Source: an uncultured Legionellales bacterium (GTDB lineage: Bacteria; Pseudomonadota; Gammaproteobacteria; Eutrophobiales; Eutrophobiaceae). Taken from it: DNA of 64,000 nucleotides. A program made the position numbers and the translations under genes. The DNA lies in the NCBI GenBank assembly GCA_913046215.1, contig CAJWRJ010000004.1:2898-66897 (forward strand), read 5' to 3'. Numbering within the stretch: position 1 is the first letter of the stretch; each line of letters opens with the position of its first letter. This document shows positions 1,513-36,847 of this stretch, piece after piece. Under the pieces are notes generated by a model. The model did no database searches. It saw only the letters and a list, made by a program, of their open reading frames with translations, and was not told where the DNA came from.

Positions 1513-1624
1513 GGTGGCCCGAACCGTTCTTACCCCGGCACACACGTCAACTGCTGCCGCTGCTCCCTCTCGGGCCTGACGGGATTCACAATATGGTGTT
1601 GCGAGGAGCCCAGCCCGAGCCACC
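1513..1624 (-). ncRNA. ffs: Signal recognition particle RNA (4.5S)
   Basis: GC-rich segment in an AT-rich spacer. The minus strand has the helix-8 motif GUCAGGCCC-GAGA-GGGAGCAGC, the termini GGUGGCUCGG and UUCGGGCCACC pair, and it lies upstream of dnaX. Confidence 0.93.
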
Positions 1625-1734: not shown

Positions 1735-3030
1735 TTATTTTGATGCTGTATCGTCAAACTGCTCTTCTTCTGTCGAACCAGTTAATGCTGTAACTGAAGA
1801 CTTTCCTCCCTGTATAACAGTTGTTACATCATCAAAATAACCGGCACCAACTTCTTGTTGATGACTAGCGAACGTATAACCACGCTCTGATGCTGCAAAT
1901 TCTGGTTCTTGTACTTTTTCAATATATGCTGTCATGCCACGACGTACATAATCATGGGTTAATTCAAACATGTTGTACCACATGTTATGAATACCGGCTA
2001 ATGTAATAAACTGGTATTTATATCCCATTGCGCCAAGCTCTTTTTGAAATTTTGCAATGTCAGAGTCACTTAGATTCTTCTTCCAATTAAATGAAGGAGA
2101 ACAATTGTATGCTAGCAACTGATCGGGATATTCTTTTTTTATCGCCTCAGCGAATTTTTTAGCTTCATCCATATCTGGTACCGCTGTTTCACACCACAAT
2201 AAATCAGCATACGGAGCATACGCCAGACCACGTGAAATAGCCTGATCTATACCTGCTTTTGTTATATAAAATCCCTCAGAACTTCTTTCTCCGGTTATAA
2301 AGTCTTTATCGTATGGATCTACGTCAGAGGTTAATAATGCAGCAGCGTTTGCATCTGTTCTGGCAAGAACAATTGTTGGAACACCCATTGTATCAGCGGC
2401 TAATCGTGCCGCAGTTAATTTTTGAACTGCCTCTTGTGACGGAACAAGTACCTTGCCGCCCATATGTCCGCATTTTTTTACTGATGCTAATTGATCTTCA
2501 AAATGTACGCCGGAAGCACCCGCCTCAATCATGTTTTTCATTAATTCAAAAGCATTTAAAACACCGCCAAAGCCAGCTTCAGCATCGGCAACAATTGGTG
2601 CAAAAAAATCAACGTTACCACTACCTCTAGAACTTTGTATTTCATCTGCACGCTTAAATGCATTATTTATCCGAGTGACCATAGTAGGTACTGAATCTAC
2701 TGCATACAATGATTGATCTGGATACATTGTCTCGGACGTATTTCCGTCTGCGGCAACTTGCCAACCAGATAAGTAAATAGCTTTTATTCCACCCTTGACT
2801 TGCTGTACTGCCTGACCGCCTGTGACAGCGCCCAAACAATTAATATAATCTTCTTCATTAACAAGTTTCCACAGTTTCTCTGCCCCACGACGTGCCAAGG
2901 TGTGCTCTATCTGAACCGAACCACGAAGTCTCACAACATCAGCAGCAGTATAATCGCGTTTTACGCCCTTCCAGCGAGGATTTTCTGACCAATCTTGCTC
3001 GAGTTTTTTGATTTCACTGTCTTTGCTCAT
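1735..3030 (-). CDS. aceA: Isocitrate lyase
   Basis: KKCGHMGGK catalytic motif, [18 protein letters not shown]. Confidence 0.98.
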
Positions 3031-12112: not shown

Positions 12113-12868
12113 ATGAAAGAAAAAAATAATTTTGCTGAGCGTATACGCACAAATGAACTTCTGATAGGTACATTAGTTAGCTTACCGTCACCTGAAGTTT
12201 GTGAATTACTTGCTAATATCGGCTATGACTGGTTATTTATAGATGCGGAGCATGGTGCATTTAATCCACAACAAGCACAAACAATGTTACAAGCAGCCTC
12301 GCCTATACCATGTTTAATACGAGTGCCATCTGATGAGACAGTCTGGATAAAAAAAGCACTCGATATCGGAGCAGAAGGTGTAATTGTTCCTCAAGTACAT
12401 AATGAGGTGCAAGCTAAGAGAATTATTGCTGATTGTAAATATTCTCCAGTTGGCGAGAGGGGAATTGGTATTGGACGTGCACATAAATATGGGATTGAAT
12501 TTGAACGCTATCTAAAAAATGCAAACACTGAAACTGCAATTATATTACAAGCTGAAAGTAGCGAAGCAGCTAAAAATATCGAAAAGATAGTTGCAGTAGA
12601 GGGAGTTGATGCGATTTTGATAGGGCCTTATGATCTATCTGCTAGCTTAGGCAAACCTGGGGAAATAAATCATCCTGTGGTTCAATCTGCTATAGAAAGA
12701 ATTATTGATGCTTGCCAAGCAGCAACAATAAGTATGGGTATATTTGGTATTAATGCTGAAGCCGTATTACCTTATAAAGAAAAAGGATTTAATTTATTAG
12801 CGGTTGGTATTGATACGGCATTTCTAATTAGCTCTGCTAAAGATACACTCATTAAGATGAAAGACTAA
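12113..12868 (+). CDS. HpcH/HpaI family aldolase
   Basis: WLFIDAEHG, KKALDIGAEGVIVP, IGPYDLSASLG. Confidence 0.88.
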   Translation: MKEKNNFAERIRTNELLIGTLVSLPSPEVCELLANIGYDWLFIDAEHGAFNPQQAQTMLQAASPIPCLIRVPSDETVWIKKALDIGAEGVIVPQVHNEVQAKRIIADCKYSPVGERGIGIGRAHKYGIEFERYLKNANTETAIILQAESSEAAKNIEKIVAVEGVDAILIGPYDLSASLGKPGEINHPVVQSAIERIIDACQAATISMGIFGINAEAVLPYKEKGFNLLAVGIDTAFLISSAKDTLIKMKD

Positions 12869-14406
12869 TATAATTCAATATTACTAAATATCTTTTTTGA
12901 ACGTTCAATTATTTCATTTTGTATATTCTTTTCTTTGTTATCCCAATTTTTAACCTGCATGCTTAGTCTTGGATTATTTTTTAACAAGTTTTTGTTTTTG
13001 TAAACGAAATGCCAGTAAAGAGTTGTAAAAGGACATGCTTTATCTCCTATCGCACTTTTTGCATCATAGTGACAACCTTTGCAATAGTTAGACATGCGAT
13101 TTATATATGCCCCACTCGCTATGTATGGTTTAGAGCCCACGATACCACCATCAGCATATTGACTCATTCCAATAGTATTCGGTACTTCAACCCATGCAAC
13201 TGCATCAACAAACATAGACAAATACCATTCATGAATTTCAGATGGTTTTACTCCATACAATAAAGAAAAAAGTCCAGTGACCATGAGCCTTTGAATATGA
13301 TGACCATAACCATATTCAATAACTTGATTTATTGACTCACTCATGCATTGCATTTTTGTTTTACCAGTCCAATAGAAATCTGGCAATGTGCGTTTTGCCT
13401 TTAAATTATTTCTGCTCATCCAAATATCAGAATGAAGCCAGTAGAGGCCGTGAATATATTCTCTCCAACCAATAATTTGACGAATAAATCCCTCTGCAGC
13501 ATTAAGAGGAATCTTCTTTTTATGATAGGCTTGCTCGACTGCTTTTATAACTTCTTCTGGATTGAGGAGTTTAAGATTCAAAGAAGATGATATGAGTGAA
13601 TGATATAACCAAGGTTTTCCCGTCCACATAGCATCCTGGTAGTCGCCATATAAATTCAAACGATACTTGATGAAATCTTGCAAAACTTTAAGTGCTTGTT
13701 CTCTAGTAACAGCCCAATAAAATTTTGATGCATGGCCCGGTAAATTAGGTAATTTTTTCTCTATATCCGATATTACTTTTTTTGTAATTTTATCAGGCTT
13801 AAACTTAAGAGGCTCTCTTGTTAATTGGGGACCAGACTTATTGAAGGACTTTCGATTAGAAAGATCAAAATTCCACTTACCTCCAATAGGCTTACCATTA
13901 TCTTCAAGTAAAACTTTTCTGGACTTTCTTATATAACGATACCAATACTCCATTCTTGGTTGTTTATATTTTTTTATCCAATCATTAAATTCATTTTTTC
14001 TTGCTATAAAATTTATTTCTTCTAACCAATTAATTTTTTTTTCTTTTTTTTTAAAAAAATTATTTAATAATTCATAAACTCTAAAATCTCCAGGAATTAC
14101 ACATGTAAAATACTCTATGTCGTAATTGACCATAGTTTCTTCAAGAGCTGCAATAAAATCTTTCCTACCATCATTAATTTCTATATATTCTACTGTTATT
14201 TTTTTTTGTCTAAGTTCTTCGCAGAAATGGCGCATTGCAGAGAAGAAAATCGCTGTTCTTTGCATGCTAGATTGAGGTTTTAATGACTCAGACATGACTT
14301 CACCCATCCAAACTATGTCGCTTTTTGAATCAAAGTGAGACCAAATTAGACTATTATGACTAAGTTGATCTCCAAGAACGATGCAGAGACTCCTAATCTT
14401 ATTCAT
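12865..14406 (-). CDS. FeS-BCP class cryptochrome/(6-4) photolyase (PhrB/CryB-like)
   Basis: VLGDQL N-terminus, [47 protein letters not shown] and CPF; four Cys positioned for a 4Fe-4S cluster. Confidence 0.92.
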
Positions 14407-14564: not shown

Positions 14565-15605
14565 TTATTGGTCCTGCTTGCTAAACAAGTAATGACTAAC
14601 CCACCATTGATTGCCATTATCAAAACCGAATAATTCAGCACACGCCATAAAGAAAATACGCCATCTATTCCACCATATTCTGATATTTTGTTCTCCGTAT
14701 GTATCTTTAATTATAGGTAAGATGATTTCTTTTTTTGAATCCATATTATAAAGCCACTCATTTGAAGTTTTTTGGTAATGAGTTCCTGACCAACGCCAAT
14801 GATTATCTAGCTTAAGTTTTTCCTGAAAATAATAAGGAAGATTATCAGATGGCATTATCCCTGCTGTAAAAAAATATTGGCTCATCCAATCAGAATCATC
14901 ATCAATAATAAACTCATAGGGTGTAAGTCGATGACAAAAAATATGCTTGAAAAATTTTCCTTCTTGATTTAACCAGCTATGAATTTTTTTATACAACAAC
15001 TGATAATTTCTCATATGCTCAAACATTTCTACTGATACAATGCGATCATATTTTTTATTAGTTTCAAATTTATTCATATCGACTGTTTCGATTTCTATAT
15101 TATTCAAATTTCTTTTTTTTGCCTGCGATATAATATAGTCTCTTTGACTAGCAGAATTTGAAATTCCTAAAATTTTTGAATTAGGATAGTGGCTAGCAAT
15201 CCACAAAGTTAGAGAACCCCAACCGCAACCAAGCTCTAGAACTTCCATTCCATTCTGGAGATCTGCGTGTTGACAAGTAATTGAAAGTGCTAGACTTTCT
15301 GCTTCATCAAGATTGTTTACTTCTTCGTTCCAGTAACATGAACTATATTTTAAATTGTTCCCTAAAACTTCTTTAAAGAATGTGGTGGGTACCTCATAGT
15401 GTTGCTGGTTTGCTATCGCGGGTAAGGGAGCAATTTCTGATGACTGCATCATTTTAACAAAACTTTTTTGTATATATGCGGCCTGTTCTGGATCACTTAT
15501 ACATATTTCTTTAAGTCGCTGGTTAAGAAAAATACGTACCCCTTTTCTAACAAGATAATCGGGAAGTATTCCAAGTTCAGCAAATTTTATAGCAAGCTTT
15601 CTCAT
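14565..15605 (-). CDS. SAM-dependent methyltransferase, CMAS/Cfa-like superfamily
   Basis: ANQQHYEVP, LKYSSCYW, LELGCGWGS, SVEMFEHMRN, FFMACAELFG. Confidence 0.88.
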   Translation of the reverse strand: MRKLAIKFAELGILPDYLVRKGVRIFLNQRLKEICISDPEQAAYIQKSFVKMMQSSEIAPLPAIANQQHYEVPTTFFKEVLGNNLKYSSCYWNEEVNNLDEAESLALSITCQHADLQNGMEVLELGCGWGSLTLWIASHYPNSKILGISNSASQRDYIISQAKKRNLNNIEIETVDMNKFETNKKYDRIVSVEMFEHMRNYQLLYKKIHSWLNQEGKFFKHIFCHRLTPYEFIIDDDSDWMSQYFFTAGIMPSDNLPYYFQEKLKLDNHWRWSGTHYQKTSNEWLYNMDSKKEIILPIIKDTYGEQNIRIWWNRWRIFFMACAELFGFDNGNQWWVSHYLFSKQDQ

Positions 15606-16384
15606 AAACTAGGTTTCTTAGGAGGGAGTAATAAAAAAGCACTAGTTGTGCGCTGATATTCTTTGTAGGAATCTCCTTTTGTTCTAATGGCATTCTGCTC
15701 TGTATAAGGTATACCAGTAATTTTGACCAAGAAAATTAAAACGATGAACATTATTAACCAAGATAGCCACCACAAAGATGAGCCCATGCTTAAAAAAATA
15801 TATGACCACCAGTGAAGCCATTCAAAAAAATAATTTGGATGTCTTGAATAATACCATAAGCCAGTATTACAGACCTTAGAGCTATCATTTGATTTACGAA
15901 ATTTGGTAAGTTGTCTATCAGAAAAGTATTCTCCTGTAATTGAAATGCACCATACAATTATCGCGATATAATCTGTTATCTGTAAATTAATATTTTTATT
16001 ACTAACTACTGCTAGAATAGTTAATGCAAATAAAACTGCCCAAGTAGCCTGAAGCTGAAAAAATATAAACATAACTAATTGAGCATACTTACCACAATAT
16101 TGTTTCATATAATGATATCGCCTATCCTCATTTTCTTTTAAAACACGTTTTAATAGAAAATATGCTAGACGAAATCCCCAAAACCCAATCATGATCGCAG
16201 CAATATAGTTTCTTAAAATAAATATTTCGGTATTCATGTAAACAAAATAAATACCAATCAAAGCAGTGCAAAACGCCCAGCTGACATCAACAAACCCAGC
16301 ATTATCAGTCTTATACTGAATTGCCCATACAACAAACATAACTAATGAAGCAAAAATTAGAGAATTGGTTATTTGAATTAACAT
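15602..16384 (-). CDS. DUF1295 membrane protein (steroid 5-alpha reductase-like)
   Basis: VDVSW, EDRRY, GLWYYSRHPNYFFE, YQRTTSAF. Confidence 0.88.
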   Translation of the reverse strand: MLIQITNSLIFASLVMFVVWAIQYKTDNAGFVDVSWAFCTALIGIYFVYMNTEIFILRNYIAAIMIGFWGFRLAYFLLKRVLKENEDRRYHYMKQYCGKYAQLVMFIFFQLQATWAVLFALTILAVVSNKNINLQITDYIAIIVWCISITGEYFSDRQLTKFRKSNDSSKVCNTGLWYYSRHPNYFFEWLHWWSYIFLSMGSSLWWLSWLIMFIVLIFLVKITGIPYTEQNAIRTKGDSYKEYQRTTSAFLLLPPKKPSL

Positions 16385-16914
16385 AAATTATTACCATATT
16401 TTTTTTCTATACAATTGAGCACATATAGCATGAACGGAAAAGCAAGCGCCCATGATATTCCAATGGCTATGATACTAGATATTTCATTAATGCCATTAAT
16501 AGCGCCAATTTTTTGACCTGCAAAATAGGCCAATGGTCCGCCAATAAATGCAAAAAAAACTGCAAAAATATATTTTTGTTTCAACCAGTTCATACTATGA
16601 CGAAATGTTGTAGAAAAACTGACCCATAGTGCGACCATCCACAATGGTGATAATGGCCCAAGCTGAGCATGGGTCGGGAATTCAATGAAATTATTAAGTA
16701 GAAGCAATGAATCAACTAAGTAGCCAATCAAACCACTGAAAAAAAATATAGGTAATTCAACCCAAATAAATAATTTATTAATATACAAATGAATAGTCAC
16801 CCAAACAAAAATAAATATAGGACCTAGCCATGGATAGCCTTTTGCTGCACTAAAAACAGCAATTACCCAATTTATTTGAAAAACTAAAAAGTTAATAATG
16901 TTATTTCTATTCAT
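16378..16914 (-). CDS. DUF2878 membrane protein
   Basis: NFLVFQINW, PLWMVALW, GGPLAYFAG; typical position in this cluster. Confidence 0.82.
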   Translation of the reverse strand: MNRNNIINFLVFQINWVIAVFSAAKGYPWLGPIFIFVWVTIHLYINKLFIWVELPIFFFSGLIGYLVDSLLLLNNFIEFPTHAQLGPLSPLWMVALWVSFSTTFRHSMNWLKQKYIFAVFFAFIGGPLAYFAGQKIGAINGINEISSIIAIGISWALAFPFMLYVLNCIEKKYGNNLC

Positions 16915-16928
16915 TATTTTTTTAGGGT

Positions 16929-18134
16929 TTAATAAGTGCTAATGTTCGATTTATTCATTAATATTTGTAAATCACCTAAATAACGTTCTTGAAAACCAGC
17001 TGCACAATAAGATAAATAATATTTCCATAAACGACAAAAATTTTCATCATATCCAAGTTTTCTTATCTGAGATTCATTTTTATTGAAATTTTGTAGCCAA
17101 TATAAAAGAGTTTTAGAATAATGCGGTGCAATATCTTCAATATCATATATTGTAAAATTCGTATGTTTTTTTAGTGAATTCTTTATTGCAGCTAATGAAG
17201 GAATACAACTACCAGGAAAGATATATGTTTGTATAAAATCGGTATTTTTTAGATATTGCGGATAACGATCATCTGGCATGGTAATCGACTGCAATAACAT
17301 TTGTCCTTTAGATTTCAAAAGCTTTGAGCAAGTAGAAAAAAATGTACCCAGAAACTTATCCCCAACCGCTTCGATCATTTCAATAGAAACAATTTTATCG
17401 TAATTACCAGACAAACTACGATAATCCTTATTTAGAAGATTGATTTTTTTATTTAAGTTTAATTTAGAAAAACGTTGATTCATATATTGATACTGCTCCT
17501 CAGAAATAGTAGTCGTTGTGACTTCACAACCATAATTTTGAGCAGCATGTATTGCAAAACTTCCCCATCCACCACCAATTTCAAGAACATGATCTGTTTC
17601 ATTCAAATTAAGCTTTTTGCAAATAAGATCGAGTTTATTGATTGACGCTTCTTTTAATGATGAATTCCTTGATTCGAAAATTGCAGAGGAATATGTCATT
17701 GTGTCATCTAAGAATAGTTTGAAAAAATCATTTCCAAGGTCGTAATGTGCTTGAATATTTTTCTTACTTCCCAATTTTGAATTACTACTAAAGAAATGTA
17801 CTAGACGATTTTTTAGAATGCCAAATTTTAGAGATCCGGTTTCAAATGTATCGATTAGCTTAATGTTCTTAACAAATCCTCTAAATAATTCATATAGATC
17901 GTCACATTCCCAAAAACCTCTAATATAGGCATTGGCAATTCCATTACTACCGCTTGAGAATAACATTAAATAAAAGTCAGGATTTATAATTTTAACATTT
18001 ATAGATTTATCTCCATTACCAATTATCCAATTACCCCATAAATCAGTAAAATTTATTTTGTAATATGAAAATGGTTTAAATTTAGTTATTAATTTATTAC
18101 GTATCTTTAGATTAATTATTTTTTTTATATTCAT
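16929..18134 (-). CDS. cfa: Cyclopropane-fatty-acyl-phospholipid synthase family methyltransferase (UfaM/CfaS-like)
   Basis: NIQAHYDLGNDFF, MTYSSA, LEIGGGWG, SIEMIEAVG, YIFPG, YYLSYCAAGF. Confidence 0.88.
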   Translation of the reverse strand: MNIKKIINLKIRNKLITKFKPFSYYKINFTDLWGNWIIGNGDKSINVKIINPDFYLMLFSSGSNGIANAYIRGFWECDDLYELFRGFVKNIKLIDTFETGSLKFGILKNRLVHFFSSNSKLGSKKNIQAHYDLGNDFFKLFLDDTMTYSSAIFESRNSSLKEASINKLDLICKKLNLNETDHVLEIGGGWGSFAIHAAQNYGCEVTTTTISEEQYQYMNQRFSKLNLNKKINLLNKDYRSLSGNYDKIVSIEMIEAVGDKFLGTFFSTCSKLLKSKGQMLLQSITMPDDRYPQYLKNTDFIQTYIFPGSCIPSLAAIKNSLKKHTNFTIYDIEDIAPHYSKTLLYWLQNFNKNESQIRKLGYDENFCRLWKYYLSYCAAGFQERYLGDLQILMNKSNISTY

Positions 18135-18144
18135 ACAAAATTAA

Positions 18145-18885
18145 TTATAATTTATGTTTAGGATGGGGATGAAATGGTATGCCTTTAAACCAAAGTTTAA
18201 ATGCCTGCCAATAGATAGCAAATATTACTTTCACTGTAATGAAAGGATAACTAAACAGAACTATCATAAGACTTTTTGATGTTATATTTTCTTTGCAAAG
18301 CTTAAGTGTAGCTGTTAGTAAGTGTTTATCATTTTCGTAACTTTTCATCAAGACAGTAATTTCATCATTAGGTTTATTGAATTTCCAAATATATTCTTGC
18401 TGCATTCCCATAAAGGGAGATACATGAAACTTTTTCTCTAAATCGAATTTTAAGCTTTCACCTTTTGTATCTAGTACATAAGAGTATTGCTCGCCCCATG
18501 GCGTATTATTTATTTCAACGACTATGTAATCAATGTTTTCATAGTGTTCGTCCCAACAATAATAGAAACTAACAGGATTCATGACATAACCAAAATATCT
18601 AAGATGTGTTAACAAAGTTATTGGTCCATTAAAATCGACACCGTGCATCTTCTTAATTAGCTGTTTAATAGAGAGTGAAAGTGAATTCTTTGGATTTCCA
18701 TGATGATCTTTCCTATTAAACCAAGCTAAATTAAATCTTTTTGATGACCAGAATAAAAAATTATTGAATATACTTGGTAACTCCTCTAAATCTAAATACA
18801 TCATGAAAATATTATAGGAAAACCTATGTTCTTTTGGCTGTTTTCGATGATGACTTACTTCTCCTTTATATATTGCGCTTTGCAT
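18145..18885 (-). CDS. DUF1365 protein (UfaO-like)
   Basis: HHRKQPKEHRFSY, GYVMNPVSFYYC, EINNTPWGE, KKFHVSPF, IYWQA. Confidence 0.9.
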   Translation of the reverse strand: MQSAIYKGEVSHHRKQPKEHRFSYNIFMMYLDLEELPSIFNNFLFWSSKRFNLAWFNRKDHHGNPKNSLSLSIKQLIKKMHGVDFNGPITLLTHLRYFGYVMNPVSFYYCWDEHYENIDYIVVEINNTPWGEQYSYVLDTKGESLKFDLEKKFHVSPFMGMQQEYIWKFNKPNDEITVLMKSYENDKHLLTATLKLCKENITSKSLMIVLFSYPFITVKVIFAIYWQAFKLWFKGIPFHPHPKHKL

Positions 18886-20135
18886 TAGATTAGCCCTAAA
18901 TTATAACCTTCGCATACCCTAAGAGCACTGTTTACGCCATCCTCATGAAAGCCATAACCCCAATATGCACCACAGTAGGACAATCTATCATTTCTAATTA
19001 ACGATCTATGTTGCGCTTGATACTCAGAAATCCCAGGAAAGAATATTGGATGCTCATATTTGAATTCTTTTATGATTTTTTTTCGATTAATTTTTGAATT
19101 TAGATTTAAAGATACACAATATGTTCTATTAGAATCTATATTTTGTAATTTATTCATATAATATGTAATCATTACTTTTCTCTCATCATTTACTGGAATG
19201 CGATAATTCCAGCTAGCCCAAATTGCTTTATTGCTTGGTAAAACCGAATTATCAGTATGCAAAGTAGTTGTGTTTATCTCATATTTAAATGGGCTTAAGA
19301 TTTCTTCCTCTTTAGGATATAAATTATCAACTAATTTTAATGCCTGATTAGCGTGACACGCTAAGATTACTTCATCAAAAGTATTCATTCTATTAACATC
19401 TGTATAGACTAATACTTCATTTTTTTTACGTACAACTTTCTTTACAGATTTTTTTATAATTTCTAAATTATTCATACTTAATAACATTTTCTTGACGTAC
19501 TCCTTAGAGCCGCCTTTAACCGTTTGCCAAATTGGTCTCTCATTTACTGTAAGCATACAATGGTTATATAAAAATTCGATCACAAATAATATTGAAAAAT
19601 CCATAAATTTTTCTTTTGGACATGACCAAATTGATGAGCCCAATGGAACAAGATAGTTTTCAACAAAATCACTTTTATAATTATTAATATCAATAAATTC
19701 TTTAACTGTGATTTTATCCGAATATGAAGTATTAAGAATCATCGGCGAGAATTTATTAAATTTCAATATATCATTTAACATTAATAGAAAATTAATATTA
19801 AAAATATTTTTCTTTTGAGAAAATATTTTTGATAGTGATGACGCGTTATATTCTAATCCTGTTTTTTCATTATGCACACTAAAACTCATATCTGAATCTT
19901 CAATTTCTACATTATTTTCTAAGAATAATTTAGATAAATTGGGATAATTAATATTATTAAATACGATAAACCCAGTATCAATAGGTAACGATCTATACTT
20001 TTCCGGAACCTGAAAAGTATTTGCATGTCCACCTAAATAATCATTTTCCTCATAAAGAGTAACTGAATATTTTTTACTAAGAATGTAGGCAGCTGTGAGT
20101 CCAGAGATACCAGCCCCTATAATTGCGATTTTCAT
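18885..20135 (-). CDS. FAD-dependent oxidoreductase, amine-oxidase fold (UfaD-like)
   Basis: IIGAGISGL, GGHANT, DTGFIVFN-NYP, WASWNY, CGAYWGYGFHEDG. Confidence 0.9.
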   Translation of the reverse strand: MKIAIIGAGISGLTAAYILSKKYSVTLYEENDYLGGHANTFQVPEKYRSLPIDTGFIVFNNINYPNLSKLFLENNVEIEDSDMSFSVHNEKTGLEYNASSLSKIFSQKKNIFNINFLLMLNDILKFNKFSPMILNTSYSDKITVKEFIDINNYKSDFVENYLVPLGSSIWSCPKEKFMDFSILFVIEFLYNHCMLTVNERPIWQTVKGGSKEYVKKMLLSMNNLEIIKKSVKKVVRKKNEVLVYTDVNRMNTFDEVILACHANQALKLVDNLYPKEEEILSPFKYEINTTTLHTDNSVLPSNKAIWASWNYRIPVNDERKVMITYYMNKLQNIDSNRTYCVSLNLNSKINRKKIIKEFKYEHPIFFPGISEYQAQHRSLIRNDRLSYCGAYWGYGFHEDGVNSALRVCEGYNLGLI

Positions 20136-30913: not shown

Positions 30914-32131
30914 ATGAATACAAAGAAAATTAGTAAAGTTGTACTGGCCTACTCAGGTGGATTGGATACCTCGGTTATTCTTGCTTGGTTAAAGGATGTC
31001 TACAATTGTGAAATTGTCACATTCACAGCTGATATCGGTCAGGGTGAAGAGGTTGAGACTGCCCGAGCTAAAGCTAAAGAAATGGGTATAAGTGAAATCT
31101 TTATTGAAGACCTCACAGAGGAATATGTAAGAGATTTTGTTTTTCCAATGTTCCGTGCGAATACTATTTATGAAGGTGAATACTTATTAGGCACATCAAT
31201 TGCAAGACCATTAATTGCAAAACGTCTAGTTGATATTGCCAAAAAAACTGATGCCGATGCAATTTCACATGGAGCAACCGGCAAAGGTAATGATCAAGTT
31301 AGATTTGAACTAGGTGCGTATGCACTAGATCCAAAAATTAGAATAATAGCTCCATGGCGTGAGTGGGATCTCAATTCCAGAGAGAAACTACTTGCTTATG
31401 CTGAAAATAAAGGGATACCAATTGAAGGAAAACAAAAAGTTGGTTCTCCGTATTCGATGGATGCAAATATGCTTCATATTTCATACGAAGGAGGTCTGCT
31501 GGAGGATCCATGGAGTGAACCAGAAGAATCAATGTGGCGTTGGACTGTTGCGCCCGAGAAAGCACCTAATTCATCGGAGTCAATCGAAATTAAATTTAAA
31601 CAAGGTGATCCAATTGAATTAAATGGTAAAGAATTGTCTCCAGCAAATTTACTCTCGAATCTAAATACTATTGCTGGTAGACATGGTATTGGGCGTAACG
31701 ATATTGTTGAAAATCGATATGTTGGTATGAAATCACGGGGTTGTTATGAAACTCCTGGGGGCACAGTACTACTTAAAGCCCATCGTGCTATGGAATCACT
31801 GACCCTTGACCGTGAAGTAACGCATCTTAAAGATGAATTAATGCCTCGTTATGCAAAACTTATTTACAATGGATATTGGTGGAGTCCCGAAAGAGAGGCG
31901 CTACAGAGTCTTATTGATTGGACACAAACAGGAGTTAATGGAGTTGTGAGATTAAAACTCTTTAAGGGCAATGTCTATGTAACTGGAAGAAAATCTGATT
32001 CAGATAGTTTGTTTGACGAAGAAATTGTAACTTTTGAAGATGATTCTGGTATGTATAACCAAAAACATGCAGATGGATTTATTAAGTTGAATGCTTTACG
32101 GCTAAAATTACAAGCCAAAAAAAATAATTAA
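30914..32131 (+). CDS. argG: Argininosuccinate synthase
   Basis: [35 protein letters not shown]. Confidence 0.98.
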
Positions 32132-32887
32132 CTATTTTTTCACTCCGAGAATTACATTTCTATTTTTAAGTTCTTGAACAATTTCCTGTCCCCCATTGAG
32201 AATGACATCAGGGTTTGGATGATTCAATTCTTGAGCTACGTTTAAAATAATATCCCTGGTAGTTTTCTTAATATTAGTTTGTAATTTTTGAAATAATCTT
32301 GCGGTAACTTTATTAAGCTCAATAAAACCAATATCAAAAAAGATATCTCGATATACAACCAGATAAGTTAGTTCATTAGGCTTTACTTTGGGGCAAAAAT
32401 CACTGCTTATTCTATGTACAGGCCAATTATAGACAAGTGCTTCTGTTAGTGGACTAACAACAGGAATACCATCAAGCAGACTTGAATCTTTATCAACATT
32501 ATCAAAACATAATTCCCTCATATCTTGAGCTAGAGAGATTTCGATCCACTCGTAGTGGGCAAGCTCTAAATAAAATTTCGGAATTTTGATTCCAATCTGT
32601 TTTTTTTCTAAAAATTTTAAAAATTCTAATGGTGCTTTAGGGAAATATGGTGTCTTTGATTTATGATTTTTTATGAAATTACGAATAATTATATTCCAAT
32701 CATCACCGCTAGTTATATCTCGAAGTACTGGAAAACTTTTCGAAATCAAATTTTCTATATTATTAAAAATAAGTTCTGAATATAAAGAGATTCTTCTAGA
32801 CTCAATACCATCGGGTAATGCTGCATTTTGAGGGTCTCTCATATGTCGTGTAAATATTTCTACTTCTTTTATAAATTTTTTTGTCAT
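32132..32887 (-). CDS. DUF2063-containing MNIO partner protein (HvfC/BufC-like)
   Basis: HMRDP, RRISLYSELIFNNI, FPV and ELAHYEWIE; directly downstream of DUF692. Confidence 0.88.
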   Translation of the reverse strand: MTKKFIKEVEIFTRHMRDPQNAALPDGIESRRISLYSELIFNNIENLISKSFPVLRDITSGDDWNIIIRNFIKNHKSKTPYFPKAPLEFLKFLEKKQIGIKIPKFYLELAHYEWIEISLAQDMRELCFDNVDKDSSLLDGIPVVSPLTEALVYNWPVHRISSDFCPKVKPNELTYLVVYRDIFFDIGFIELNKVTARLFQKLQTNIKKTTRDIILNVAQELNHPNPDVILNGGQEIVQELKNRNVILGVKK

Positions 32888-32908
32888 TTTCTTATGCGCT
32901 AATTATAG

Positions 32909-33733
32909 TTACCATCCATTCAAAATCTGCTTTGACTTAATCATCTCTACTTCCTTTAATAACTTTTCAAATTTTGGAATATTAAAGTCTCTTTCAAGTA
33001 GAGTTGGGAAAACACCGAAATACTGATATGCCTTTTCTAATAATGACCAAACTGGATCAATGACATCAGCGCCGTGCGTATCAACCAAAAGATCAATGTC
33101 TTCATTGTAATGACCAGCTATATGTGAATATGCAATTCGTTCTTTTGGAAGTGCTTTTAGAAAACTTTCTGCTTCATAATTATGATTTATGCTATTTACA
33201 TAAATATTATTAATATCAACTAAAAGCTCACAGTCTGCTTCTTCAAGAATTGATTTAATAAATTCGATTTCCTTTAACTCTTGGCCTGGAGCAGCATAAT
33301 AAGAAACATTTTCTATTGCGATACGTTTACCAATAATTTCTTGAGCTCTCTTAATTCGTGAAGAGACATATTTAACTGCTTCCTCAGTAAATGGTATTGG
33401 TAATAAATCATATAAATATCCCTCATCAGCACAATAACTTAAATGTTCGCTGTATATTTGTATATTATGAGTATCAATAAATTTTTTTATGCATTTAAGA
33501 AATTCTTCATCTAATGGCGCCATACCACCTAAATTTAGAGAAAGCCCGTGACAGACGAATGGAAATTGCTCTGTTAGTGAACGAAAAATGTAAGCATCAC
33601 GTCCTCCGACTTCGACCCAGTTTTCTGGGGCAATTTCTAAAAAGTCGATTTTGTGAGATATATTATCGAGTTGTTTTAAAAAGGATTTACGTAAACCAAG
33701 GCCTGCGCCCTGAACAGAGTATGATTTTGACAT
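32909..33733 (-). CDS. DUF692 multinuclear non-heme iron oxidative enzyme (MNIO; HvfB/BufB-like)
   Basis: GAGLGLR, EIAPENW, HGLSLNLG, SEHL, DLLP, IEN, DINNIYVN, HIAGH, DTHG, LLERD. Confidence 0.95.
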   Translation of the reverse strand: MSKSYSVQGAGLGLRKSFLKQLDNISHKIDFLEIAPENWVEVGGRDAYIFRSLTEQFPFVCHGLSLNLGGMAPLDEEFLKCIKKFIDTHNIQIYSEHLSYCADEGYLYDLLPIPFTEEAVKYVSSRIKRAQEIIGKRIAIENVSYYAAPGQELKEIEFIKSILEEADCELLVDINNIYVNSINHNYEAESFLKALPKERIAYSHIAGHYNEDIDLLVDTHGADVIDPVWSLLEKAYQYFGVFPTLLERDFNIPKFEKLLKEVEMIKSKQILNGW

Positions 33734-33742
33734 TTCATTAAT

Positions 33743-34042
33743 TTATGACTTTTTACTGCCGCACTTGCCTTCACCGCACTTGCCTTCACCGCACTTGCCT
33801 TCGTTATCCTTTTTCTCTTTCTTCTTTTCTTTGTTGGTTTTTTTACTGCCGCACTTACCTTCACCGCACTTACCTTCACCGCACTTACCTTCGTGACCAT
33901 CAGCAAGCATGTAACCGGTACCTAATCCTCTAATTTCAAAAGGATTTTCACTGGCATTTGCAATAGGGTTCAACGTTATACTAATTGTAAAACCTGCCCC
34001 AATTGCAACAACGTATGGATTAATTTTATTTTTTTTCAACAT
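33743..34042 (-). CDS. Secreted RiPP precursor with six EGKCG repeats (HvfA/oxazolin-like)
   Basis: Sec-type signal ending ANA-S, NPF and GY motifs, then (EGKCG)x3-SKK, a Lys-rich linker, (EGKCG)x3-SKKS; GGAG SD upstream. Confidence 0.92.
   Translation of the reverse strand: MLKKNKINPYVVAIGAGFTISITLNPIANASENPFEIRGLGTGYMLADGHEGKCGEGKCGEGKCGSKKTNKEKKKEKKDNEGKCGEGKCGEGKCGSKKS
33750..33894. repeat. Two ~55-bp blocks 90 bp apart, each a triple 15-bp tandem repeat
   Basis: Coding-strand units GAAGGCAAGTGCGGY (block 33750-33804) and GAAGGTAAGTGCGGY (block 33840-33894). Confidence 0.95.
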
Positions 34043-34077
34043 AATAAATCTCCAACAATTTATAAATACTATAAAAA

Positions 34078-34105
34078 TATGACATTTTACGAATTAGATT
34101 GTTCA
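34078..34105 (-). promoter_or_regulatory. Candidate ECF (sigmaE-like) promoter of the RiPP operon
   Basis: The minus strand reads TGAAC-N17-GTCATA, with the same GAAC-to-GTC spacing as GAACTT-N16-TCTGA promoters. Confidence 0.4.
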
Positions 34106-34118
34106 AATACCCTATGTT

Positions 34119-35606
34119 TTATTTCTGTCTCAAATGGGGAAACAAAATAACATCTCGTATTGAGGCTGAATCGGTTAAAAACATTACTAATCTATCGATA
34201 CCAATGCCCTCTCCAGCTGTTGGCGGCATACCATACTCAAGCGCTTTTATATAATCATCATCAAAGTGCATGGCCTCATCATCTCCTGCTTCTTTATCTT
34301 CAACCTGTTTTCTAAATCGTTCAGCTTGATCCTCTGGGTCATTTAATTCAGAAAAACCATTTGCGATTTCTCGACCAGCAATAAAAAACTCAAATCTATC
34401 AGTAACAAAAGGATCATCGTTATTCTTTCTCGCTAATGGAGAAACTTCAGTAGGAAATTGTGTTATAAAAGTTGGTGATAATAACTTCGATTCAACCGTT
34501 TTTTCAAAAATTTCTACCTGAATTTTACCTAATCCATAGCTATCCTCTATGAATACATCTAATTCTTTAGCAATACTGCGAATTTTTTCTAATGACCTTA
34601 GATCTTCATCGGATATAGTCTTATTATATTTCAAAATAGATTCAAATAATGACAATCTCTCAAATGGTTTTCCTAAATCATAAACCTGTTCTTGATAAGT
34701 AACTTCGTGAGTATTGAAAAGATTTAAAGTCAACTCACGCATCATATTTTCAGTTAAATTCATTAAATCTTCATAATCAGAATAGGCCTGATAAAATTCA
34801 AGCATTGTAAACTCTGGATTATGCCTAGGAGACAATCCTTCGTTTCTAAAACTACGGTTTATTTCAAATACTTTCTCGATTCCACCAACAACCAAACGTT
34901 TCAAATATAATTCTGGTGCGATACGAAGAAAAAGTTCCATATCTAAACTATTATGATGAGTGATAAAAGGTCTAGCAGTTGCTCCTCCTGGAATAACATG
35001 CATCATGGGTGTTTCGACTTCTATATAATTTTCACTCTTTAAATATGAGCGTATAAAATCTATGATCTTTGATCTTATTTTAAATGTATTGCGTGTTTTC
35101 TCATTCATAATCAGATCAACATAACGTTGACGATAACGAAGTTCTTGGTCTGTTAAGCCATGATATTTTTCAGGTAGCGGTCTAAGTGATTTAGTCAGCA
35201 ATTCAATAGAATTTACATGGATACTCAACTCACCTTTATTAGTCTTCATAAGAGTACCGGTAGCACCAATAATGTCACCAATATCCCATTTTTTAAATCC
35301 ATCGTTATATATTCCGTCTGGTAAATCATCGCGTCTAACATATAACTGAATTTGGCCAAACATATCTTGAATATGTGCAAAAGAAGCTTTTCCCATGATT
35401 CTTCTGCTCATCATTCTGCCAGCAATAGAAACCTTAATCGGAGTATTTTCAAGATCTTCTTTTGATTTATTCTCATATTTAGAATGTAAATCAGAAGAAA
35501 ATGAATCGCGTTTAAATTGATTTGAATATGCAACGCCAGTATTTCTTAATTCTTTTAAATCTTGGCGACGTTGTAAGATTAAATCATTTTCGTTATCTGT
35601 AGTCAT
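34119..35606 (-). CDS. lysS: Lysine--tRNA ligase (class II)
   Basis: [43 protein letters not shown]. Confidence 0.98.
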
Positions 35607-35682: not shown

Positions 35683-36781
35683 TTATAGTCCACTTTTTAA
35701 ACTCGCTTCGATAAATGCATCCAAATCTCCATCCAGAACAGCCTGTGTATTGCCTGTTTCTATCGATGTTCTCAAGTCTTTAATGCGCGATTGATCAAGG
35801 ACATACGATCTTATTTGACTACCCCATCCAATATCAGCCTTCGAATCTTCTAGCACTTGTTTCTCCGAATGCAATTTTTGCATTTCAAATTCATATAATT
35901 TAGCTCTCAACTGTTTCATAGCATGATCTTTATTTTTATGTTGGGAACGATCGCTTTGACATTGAGTAACAATACCACTTGGAATATGAGTTAATCTCAC
36001 TGCTGAATCTGTTTTATTAACATGTTGCCCACCAGCACCACTTGCCCTATATGTGTCTACACGTATGTCAGATGGATTTAAATCTATTTCAATACTGTCA
36101 TCAATCTCTGGTGATACAAAAACAGAAGCAAAAGAAGTATGACGACGATTACCTGAATCGAAAGGAGATTTTCTAACTAGCCGATGCACACCGGTTTCTG
36201 TACGTAACCACCCATATGCATACTCCCCTATAAATTGAATCGTTGCACTTTTTATTCCAGCGACTTCCCCTGGGGATGCTTCTAATAAGTCTACCTTTAA
36301 GTTATGTTTTTCTCCCCATCGTAAATACATACGTAATAACATTTCCGCCCAATCTTGTGCTTCAGTTCCACCAGAACCAGATTGGATATCGACGAATGCA
36401 TTATTGATATCCATCTCACCAGAAAACATACGCCTAAATTCAAGGTTACTTAATTTCTTTTCGCTATTATCAAGATCAGTAAGAACCACCTCAATAGTTT
36501 CACTATCGCCCTCTTCTTCAGCTAATTTTAATAATTCTAGTGATTCAGAAAGAGATTCTTGCAGAGAATCTATTGTTGTAACAATATTTTCGAGATAGGC
36601 ACGCTCTTTTCCTAGATTCTGAGCATATTCAGCATTGTTCCATATATCAGGCTGCTCAAGCTCTCTTAATACCTCTACTAAACGCTCAGATCTTTCATCG
36701 TATTCAAAGGTACCCCCTAAGCAGTTCTATGCGCGCCTTCATATCAGATATTTTTGTGAGAAGTGGATTTATTTCGAGCAT
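35683..36781 (-). CDS. prfB: Peptide chain release factor 2 with programmed +1 frameshift
   Basis: ATG at 36781 gives 25 codons (MLEINPLL...LRGYL), then AGGGGG-TAC-CTT-TGA. The +1 frame continues into the 35683..36489 ORF, which has the SPF and GGQ motifs. Confidence 0.96.
36703..36718 (-). promoter_or_regulatory. prfB +1 frameshift cassette
   Basis: Internal SD AGGGGG, then TAC CTT TGA A. Confidence 0.92.
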
Positions 36782-36847
36782 TTAATTCGAAGCCTTGAAA
36801 TTTTGTTAATATTTATTCTATAAGAACTAGCCATATAGTATCAAAAA

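Follow-up and report, generated by a model that had tools for sequence, protein, structure and literature searches.

An hvfABC operon, very probably for a peptide of the oxazolin/captophorin class, kept without DoxX in a small marine gammaproteobacterial genome

Introduction

A class of ribosomally synthesised peptides with post-translational modifications (RiPPs) carries EGKCG repeats whose cysteines are oxidised by multinuclear non-haem iron oxidases (MNIOs). Manley et al. (2024; PMC11252979) described the hvf operon of nontypeable Haemophilus influenzae, reporting that the peptide loses 4 Da six times and binds copper, and that its homologues number more than 3,000. Leprevost et al. (2025; PMC12452194) counted about 2,000 'Buf_EGKCG/oxazolin' precursors, with RiPP, MNIO, DUF2063 and DoxX genes occurring 'in various combinations', and Gadgil et al. 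(2026; PMC13097082) named the class captophorins and reassigned the modification to 5-thiooxazole. Here we analyse a three-gene locus of this kind, hvfABC, on a stretch of 64,000 nucleotides (the window) from an uncultured Legionellales bacterium (Eutrophobiales; Eutrophobiaceae; assembly GCA_913046215.1, contig CAJWRJ010000004.1, positions 2,898 to 66,897 of the forward strand). The locus is very probably a functional operon of the oxazolin, Buf_EGKCG or captophorin class.

Captophorins are recognised by the conversion of Cys to 5-thiooxazole (a loss of 4 Da each, with absorbance near 302-305 nm) and by Cu(I) binding of the mature peptide. All EGKCG Cys are modified by the enzyme pairs HvfBC, FonBC and MmrBC, whose products are copper-binding (PMC11252979, PMC13097082, PMC12538549). 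Turnover by FonBC requires at least two EGKCG repeats (PMC13097082). Manley et al. (2026; 10.64898/2026.07.17.739211) report that the product has six 5-thiooxazoles and that the cofactor, a mixed-valent diiron centre, depends on HvfC. In marine Microbulbifer the characterised cluster has three genes, mmrABC: the precursor has a conserved N-terminal region and 5-8 EGKCG Cys, and an RiPP recognition element (RRE) has been modelled on the leader (PMC12538549). The role of DoxX is called unknown in the papers on the class.

Results

The locus consists of three co-oriented open reading frames (ORFs) on the minus strand, established by ORF calling and sequence reading. Coordinates are window positions throughout, and the genome that holds the window is called G000. 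The gene hvfA (34042..33743) encodes a 99-aa precursor of the EGKCG-repeat (oxazolin/captophorin) type, hvfB (33733..32909) a 274-aa MNIO (DUF692) maturase of the HvfB type, and hvfC (32887..32132) a 251-aa partner in which a DUF2063 domain is followed by an NGO1945_C (RRE-type) domain at the C-terminus. The intergenic gaps measure 9 nt (hvfA-hvfB, 33734-33742) and 21 nt (hvfB-hvfC, 32888-32908), in agreement with the first-pass annotation of this DNA. HvfB matches PF05114 (MbnB_TglH_ChrH) with 339.1 bits against a cut-off of 25 and reaches the NCBIfam equivalog NF003818 (427.1, cut-off 360); it stays below the models for BufB (NF050167, 270, cut-off 310) and MbnB (TIGR04159, 46.9, cut-off 325). 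HvfC, a partner of PME type 1 (DUF2063 plus an RRE-type domain), carries PF09836 (DUF2063) at residues 12-93 and PF22106 (NGO1945_C) at residues 145-240 and reaches NF050145 (251.8, cut-off 142). HvfA matches the HvfA-family repeat domain NF050137 (KCGExKCG_twice) in three stretches (36.6 bits, cut-off 19.5), and scores 26.1 with the H. influenzae HvfA equivalog NF050188, below its cut-off of 95. Because all three proteins pass curated NCBIfam HvfA/HvfB/HvfC cut-offs, the locus is a plain member of the published class. The first-pass annotation had read it as an MNIO RiPP operon with an HvfA-type precursor, a DUF692 enzyme and a DUF2063 partner, and the matches to PF05114, PF09836 and NF050137 bear out each of these parts. 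HvfB is the only MNIO encoded in G000 by profile search, and HvfA the only ORF of the genome with G-x-C-G repeats.

The metal site of the enzyme appears intact. Residues H62, H97, E141, D173, N176, H204, D218, H220 and E247 are identical in all 104 sequences of an alignment made of the window protein and ORFs from fetched loci, so the His/Asp/Glu motifs noticed beforehand are preserved and none of these nine candidate ligands is lost across the MNIO alignment. For the assignment of HvfB residues to sites 1 and 2 we take the arrangement to be that of MbnB. The closest solved structure to HvfB is PDB 3BWW (E 1.7e-73), and both the D-x-x-N motif (with N176) and the D-T-H motif (with D218 and H220) align with it; the window HvfB lacks an insertion of about 13 residues that 3BWW has before D-T-H. 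By alignment, N176, D218 and H220 would map to N175, D242 and H244 (site 3) of the characterised HvfB, where Ala substitutions abolish activity and for which 3BWW serves as a structural proxy (10.64898/2026.07.17.739211). The closest solved structure to HvfC is PDB 3DEE (E 1.2e-8), and both entries have also been used for this peptide class in the literature (10.64898/2026.07.17.739211, PMC13097082).

The precursor reads, in order, as a Lys-rich start, a hydrophobic stretch up to A28-N29-A30, the segment SENPFEIRGLGTGYM (SENPF...GYM), (EGKCG)x3-SKK, a Lys/Glu linker and (EGKCG)x3-SKKS, with its six Cys at residues 54, 59, 64, 84, 89 and 94. Residues 1-30 (33953..34042, minus strand) form a predicted Sec signal peptide with cleavage after A28-N29-A30; inspection finds K3, K4 and K6, a hydrophobic run at 10-24 and A-N-A at 28-30. 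All 27 aligned relatives show this signal-like layout and have A30 unchanged. Judged by inspection and conservation, HvfA therefore seems to carry an N-terminal Sec signal and not a classical leader. Tandem Repeats Finder (TRF) detects repeat module 1 (33848..33892, minus strand; Cys54/59/64) and repeat module 2 (33758..33802, minus strand; Cys84/89/94), each as a 15-nt unit in 2.9 copies with 100% internal matches. Between them the ORF translation gives a Lys/Glu-rich linker at residues 66-80, SKKTNKEKKKEKKDN (33803..33847, minus strand). Since both arrays are perfect and their DNA units differ by one synonymous base, each module appears to have been homogenised or triplicated independently. 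The architecture proposed from the letters alone (99 aa, Sec signal, NPF/GY segment, two (EGKCG)x3 lobes and a Lys/Glu linker) is thus upheld, the signal by inspection.

The segment between signal and repeats is a candidate for the site at which HvfC binds. The ENPF...GY segment, residues 32-44 (33911..33949, minus strand), is a predicted HvfC docking site on the grounds of conservation and of a complex model. P34, F35, G43 and Y44 are, like A30, invariant in 27/27 aligned precursors. A pattern of [N/D/S]PF, 4-14 further residues and G-Y precedes the repeats in 78 of 88 candidate precursors, taken as those ORFs of the fetched loci that contain two or more KCG, and some of the remaining 10 are masked or start-shifted. 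A model of HvfC (41-row alignment) with HvfA residues 28-66 (27-row alignment) scored 0.79, and the best of three controls 0.01; the mark that the model reached is attained by 58/80 solved complexes and 2/110 mismatched pairs, counts that apply approximately, given that our model used alignments of our own. Three runs of the model have at least 46% of contacts in common, at a partner pLDDT (predicted local distance difference test) of 46-48. The modelled interface places HvfA 32-41 on HvfC 187-198 and 221-240, within the NGO1945_C domain. Overall, the invariant segment is predicted to be an HvfC recognition site. The word 'NPF' is absent from the main texts of PMC12452194 and PMC13097082.

The number and grouping of the repeats vary among relatives. 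Within the genus the Cys modules are laid out as 3+3 in G000, 5+1 in G001, 3+1+3 in G006, 3 in G002 and 4 with a frameshift in G003, and precursors of sister genera hold 4-16 KCG units; all these counts bear the caveat that repeats may collapse in metagenome-assembled genomes (MAGs). The first-pass annotation saw two symmetric lobes. As a design principle this can be ruled out, as the grouping of modules varies between species of the genus; the 3+3 layout is particular to the species of the window.

Two sister genera carry two tandem hvfA-like genes before hvfB, namely G009 (locus L113, 5197-5403 and 5603-5950) and G011 (L115, 1627-1977 and 2122-2430). The second copy in G011 has the non-canonical repeats AGKCG, TICGG and VKCGG.

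Among the described systems close to the locus is hvf of H. influenzae (HvfA/B/C/X). Both have a Sec-signal precursor with six EGKCG Cys, an MNIO, a DUF2063-RRE partner and the gene order A-B-C, and HvfB and HvfC of both pass the same NCBIfam models. However, the H. influenzae operon is hvfX-hvfA-hvfB-hvfC and includes DoxX/HvfX, whereas the G000 genome is without DoxX. Its Cys are arranged as three AEGKCGEGKCG pairs instead of 3+3, its peptide has an N-terminal Cys pair, C38/C43 (PMC11252979), that the window HvfA lacks, and its host is a pathogen, whereas the host of the window is a free-living marine bacterium. The mmrABC genes of Microbulbifer (bulbicupramide) resemble the locus as a marine gammaproteobacterial three-gene A-B-C cluster with a conserved N-terminus and a variable number of EGKCG, a likeness by description and not by sequence (PMC12538549). 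The Microbulbifer product is a short peptide of 12 residues from cassettes flanked by Lys triplets; for the window, with no protease nearby, we assume that the product is the whole 69 residues, and its host genome of 1.4 Mb is unlike that of Microbulbifer. Fontiphorin (fonABC) and gonophorin likewise stem from MNIO-PME1 clusters with EGKCG 5-mer repeats, which in their case are converted to 5-thiooxazoles (PMC13097082); they are found in other hosts, often with DoxX and regulators, and are again likened by description instead of sequence.

Other related systems are the bufferins Buf1 (DUF2282) and Buf2 with BufB/BufC (PMC11626156, PMC12452194). Like the locus they have an MNIO with a DUF2063 partner, and the Sec export of the precursor, the thiooxazoles and the buffering of periplasmic copper would be common to both. 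Their precursor family differs, the window precursor being of the EGKCG type and not DUF2282; the BufB model is not reached and no sigma/anti-sigma pair is present. Methanobactin (MbnABC) resembles the locus in the fold of its MNIO enzyme, and it binds copper through heterocycles that derive from Cys. Its leader is not a Sec signal, MbnC is not a DUF2063 protein, the heterocycle is an oxazolone/thioamide, the product is a secreted chalkophore with its own transporters, and HvfB does not reach the MbnB model. From these published members one could also argue that a thiooxazole peptide serves mainly a task other than copper, such as binding another thiophilic metal or relieving oxidative stress, given that hvf-type clusters have been linked to oxidative stress, that metal specificity is unsettled and that MerC fusions occur in related bufferins (PMC11252979, PMC12452194, PMC13097082). 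However, every characterised EGKCG product binds copper (PMC11252979, PMC13097082, PMC12538549) and nothing in the locus points to another metal, and we consider such a task improbable.

G000 comprises 1.40 Mb on 52 contigs, is an estimated 98.8% complete and has 34.9% GC. Marine and seawater metagenome runs contain nearly identical DNA, with at least half of the sampled words in 13 of them; the studies listed number 11, and the assembly may itself derive from some of these. Genomes of this gammaproteobacterial genus measure 1.0-1.5 Mb, and those of the other genera of the order, which consists of a single family, 1.7-5 Mb. Among the 83 genomes of the order with a completeness of at least 90%, HvfB exceeds the cut-off in 72, which makes the operon near-core in the order; in a smaller sample it was found in 25/41 relatives. 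The neighbours of the operon, lysS (34119-35606, minus strand) upstream and the convergent argG (30914-32131, plus strand) downstream, are context and lie outside the system, and their coordinates confirm the position between lysS and argG. In 17 of 18 family loci lysS is the immediate upstream neighbour of hvfA, and prfB and recJ usually come before it; the 18th has a contig edge just after hvfA. Outside the family, the prfB-lysS-hvfABC arrangement occurs in 1/7 loci (G038) and in 1/80 named loci (L031). HvfB identity among these 80 is at most 67%; L031, labelled 'Proteobacteria bacterium', shares the prfB-lysS-hvfABC-argG synteny. The embedding among housekeeping genes is accordingly correct as a position, but it is no curiosity of one genome: since the lysS-hvfA neighbourhood recurs in 17/18 family loci, it is old inherited synteny. 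Within this gammaproteobacterial order the operon has been passed on by vertical inheritance.

DoxX is missing from this setting. PF07681 gave no match in G000, in a profile search whose control was positive in 8/14 reference genomes, and tblastn with four DoxX queries from sister genera found none in G000 at E <= 1e-3. The family was found in 0/7 genus genomes and in 28/41 relatives overall. On the other side of hvfC, argG abuts the gene in G000, G001, G002, G003, G004 and G006, while the hvfC-argG interval in sister genera spans 0.76-6.2 kb. This stretch holds DoxX there (PF07681 in 3/3 tested ORFs), placed right after hvfC, together with a Na+/H+ exchanger, a PAS-GGDEF-EAL protein and often a PF01645 membrane protein. 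In G019 doxX is the sole gene between hvfC and argG, and the layout of the genus thus differs from that of G019 by doxX alone. Of the HvfB-positive genomes, 19 have DoxX, and in 12 of these a DoxX gene and hvfB share a contig at a distance of no more than 7 kb. Six of 25 HvfB-positive relatives lack any DoxX, namely four genus genomes and G010 and G017 from two other genera, so a DoxX-less operon is not peculiar to the genus. The first-pass annotation, which saw no DoxX next to the genes and spoke of a stripped-down version, therefore holds for the whole genus; the unlinked partner that it proposed to look for was found neither elsewhere in G000 nor in the 7 genus genomes. G004 and G005 were rejected as cases of HvfB loss: the contig of G004 begins inside hvfC beside argG, and that of G005 ends inside lysS.

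Near hvfC, four sister genera encode a protein of some 500 aa that combines a glutamate-synthase domain with a hydrophobic N-terminus, which probably spans the membrane (L029 6121-7620, minus; L020 9920-11425, plus; L027 5903-7411, minus; L017 3317-4828, minus; PF01645 with 301 bits in the one tested). In L029 and L020 its gene separates hvfC from doxX and shares their strand, and G000 has only weak matches to it. PF01645 is not listed among the accessory genes of EGKCG clusters in the excerpted passages of the published papers.

The loss of DoxX and its neighbours raises the question of whether the operon is a decaying, non-functional remnant. In favour of this, DoxX is gone across the genus, and two genomes carry breaks: hvfB of G002 is split into two frames (L111, 2635-3446), and in hvfA of G003 the frame shifts immediately ahead of the EGKCG repeats (L015, 2428-2682). 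As these MAGs are 66% and 84% complete, the breaks are ambiguous between assembly error and decay. On the other hand, all three ORFs are intact in G000, G001 and G006 and all ligand residues are kept. In the least saturated pair (G001-G003) the ratio of non-synonymous to synonymous substitution rates (dN/dS) is 0.10 for hvfB and 0.15 for hvfC, and about 0.05 for argG and lysS; in other pairs of the genus it is 0.07-0.29, at dS of at least 1. By these ratios, hvfB and hvfC remain under purifying selection. A genome of 1.4 Mb with zero-nt junctions is also unlikely to keep 1.9 kb of dead DNA, HvfB-positive and DoxX-less genomes occur in two other genera (G010, G017), and contigs from RNA libraries lie on hvfA and hvfB. 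Taken together, a remnant is highly improbable.

These contigs come from marine RNA libraries of four runs in three studies, the runs having been chosen for holding this stretch. At 0-1 differences they cover the non-repetitive 5' stretch of hvfA (X14 33864-34072, X15 33865-34054, X16 33789-33956 and X17 33915-34065), and further ones lie in hvfB (X14 33273-33503) and across the hvfA/hvfB junction (X16 33710-33788). Short pieces of 33-45 nt that match the repeats with loose ends stem from EGKCG genes of other organisms and were not counted. Such cover is lacking over most of hvfC and in parts of hvfB and lysS, gaps that carry no meaning. The contigs are a hint that the precursor is expressed in situ in seawater, in contrast to Microbulbifer, where no expression was seen without added copper (PMC12538549). 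They end at 34054, 34065 and 34072, at no single place, and none bridges into lysS; ends near 34054-34072 give a faint hint of an own 5' end of hvfA.

Signals for expression around the operon are sparse. The spacer between lysS and hvfA (34043..34118, minus strand) is 76 nt long and contained no promoter-like and no terminator-like site in a consensus scan, which called no terminator at either end of the operon; promoter-like sites numbered 16, fewer than in shuffled sequence (23.2 +/- 5.5). A GGAG Shine-Dalgarno sequence stands 7 nt before the hvfA ATG, and those of hvfB and hvfC are weak on reading the sequence. Such a difference would fit more precursor than enzyme. The ORF list of the locus contains no sigma/anti-sigma pair, sensor or transporter adjoining the operon, consistent with the first-pass annotation, which had noted no sigma/anti-sigma pair or transporter there. 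The stop codons of argG and hvfC abut with 0 nt between them (32129-32134), and no terminator-like hairpin was called at this junction in the terminator scan. The junction shows an extreme density of genes, as is typical of very compact genomes.

The copper context of the genome is equally sparse. Profile searches found no CopA-type ATPase (TIGR01511) in G000, with a positive control in 14/14 reference genomes, and neither an HMA domain nor a multicopper oxidase domain; COX2, Sco1 and PCuAC are encoded. CopA was found in 0/7 genus genomes and is missing from 32/83 genomes of the order. One way to read this is that the operon and its chemistry are as described and the peptide serves copper supply instead of defence: in copper-poor seawater it would store or chaperone Cu(I) in the periplasm and pass it to Sco1/PCuAC and the aa3 cytochrome oxidase. 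The presence of COX2, Sco1 and PCuAC would agree with this, as would the missing logic of classical copper efflux, and no copper sensor or sigma/anti-sigma pair stands beside the operon. Its place after housekeeping genes, with no promoter or terminator called between, would in addition fit constitutive expression. However, the published members are tied to copper or oxidative stress and not to acquisition (PMC11252979, PMC12452194, PMC13097082), sco1 and PCuAC are on contig C2 and hvfABC on contig C4, and the lack of CopA in 32/83 genomes of the order makes it say little about the genus. We therefore regard a supply role as unlikely.

We also considered whether hvfABC stands in for CopA. In a sample of 41 genomes all 7 CopA-less genera had HvfB, and in the 83-genome sample of the order, whose members are related, HvfB was present in 31/32 CopA-less and 41/51 CopA-positive genomes; G050 has neither HvfB nor CopA. 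With HvfB near-core, CopA often missing and the genomes related to each other, this pattern is only a weak trend, and compensation for CopA by hvf was set aside as a finding. A bolder reading is that in this genus hvfABC is the only recognisable copper-handling system beside Sco1/PCuAC, a DoxX-free and perhaps constitutive main periplasmic buffer or reservoir for Cu(I). We put this forward tentatively and think it rather doubtful. Constitutive expression could then arise from prfB-lysS read-through or be driven by a weak promoter within the 76 nt of the spacer. If true, DoxX/HvfX would be dispensable for the core function, and the peptide class would have a housekeeping role in oligotrophic plankton instead of one in stress or virulence.

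Elsewhere in the window, prfB (35683-36782, minus strand) is laid out in two frames: a short ORF from about 36782 stops at an in-frame TGA, and the main frame resumes at +1 at a site near 36704-36709 that reads CTT TGA A after AGGGGG. This is the classical programmed +1 frameshift of release factor 2. The sole Rfam match in the window at gathering score is the bacterial small SRP RNA (RF00169, 54.2 bits) at 1519-1615 (minus strand). From ORF starts alone, an isocitrate lyase (1735-3030, minus), a photolyase-like gene (12865-14406, minus) and a cluster with cyclopropane-fatty-acid-synthase-like and amine-oxidase-like genes (14565-20135, minus) are suggested.

Discussion

The locus is, with high probability, a working hvfABC operon. 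Its gene content, family membership, conserved ligands, synteny, lack of DoxX, purifying selection and presence in RNA libraries are results of the present analysis, and from its characterised relatives we infer the chemistry, the export and the copper binding of its product. HvfA would be translated with its Sec signal. HvfC would then bind the ENPF...GY segment, just past the signal, by its C-terminal RRE-type domain in the cytoplasm and present the EGKCG repeats to HvfB. With O2, this multinuclear non-haem iron oxidase would turn each of the six Cys into a 5-thiooxazole by removing four electrons, with a mass change of -4 Da per Cys and about 24 Da in total. The first-pass annotation had likewise expected a loss of about 4 Da per Cys, and this part stands; the oxazolone/thioamide that it named as a product does not, as the product of HvfB-type enzymes has been reassigned to 5-thiooxazole in the literature. 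Sec export and a signal peptidase cut after Ala30 would then release a Lys-rich periplasmic peptide of 69 residues that sequesters Cu(I). During the history of the genus the hvfC-argG stretch, which holds doxX/hvfX in sister genera, has been lost, with the three core genes kept under selection.

Several points weigh against this assignment. The mechanism is proposed by homology. HvfA, remaining below the cut-off of NF050188, is a family member and not an orthologue-grade match, and its Sec signal was judged by eye only. The score of the complex model may reflect likeness to known RRE-leader complexes, and the fold of the partner is uncertain in it. dS is saturated in most pairs, and the frameshifts in G002 and G003 could be assembly errors or real, early decay. 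The RNA contigs give neither strand nor level, and carry-over of DNA is possible. Among the relatives, no expression of mmrABC was seen in Microbulbifer without added copper and its ecological role has been questioned (PMC12538549), and copper binding by EGKCG peptides was heterogeneous in vitro (PMC13097082).

For the RiPP field the locus breaks no new ground in kind: the family with its enzymes and chemistry, and also a marine version of three genes, have been published, and the curated NCBI models would name all three genes. The initial view of the locus as unusual therefore falls away: it belongs to three curated families, with about 2,000 to more than 3,000 HvfA-type precursors and with mmrABC already described. 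Its modest value lies in the context, to which belong the loss of DoxX with retention of hvfABC during strong genome reduction and the hint from RNA-library contigs of expression in seawater. The invariant NPF...GY segment past the signal is a concrete and testable candidate for the recognition site of HvfC. The loss of DoxX, with A, B and C kept under purifying selection, is comparative evidence that DoxX/HvfX is unneeded for the core function.

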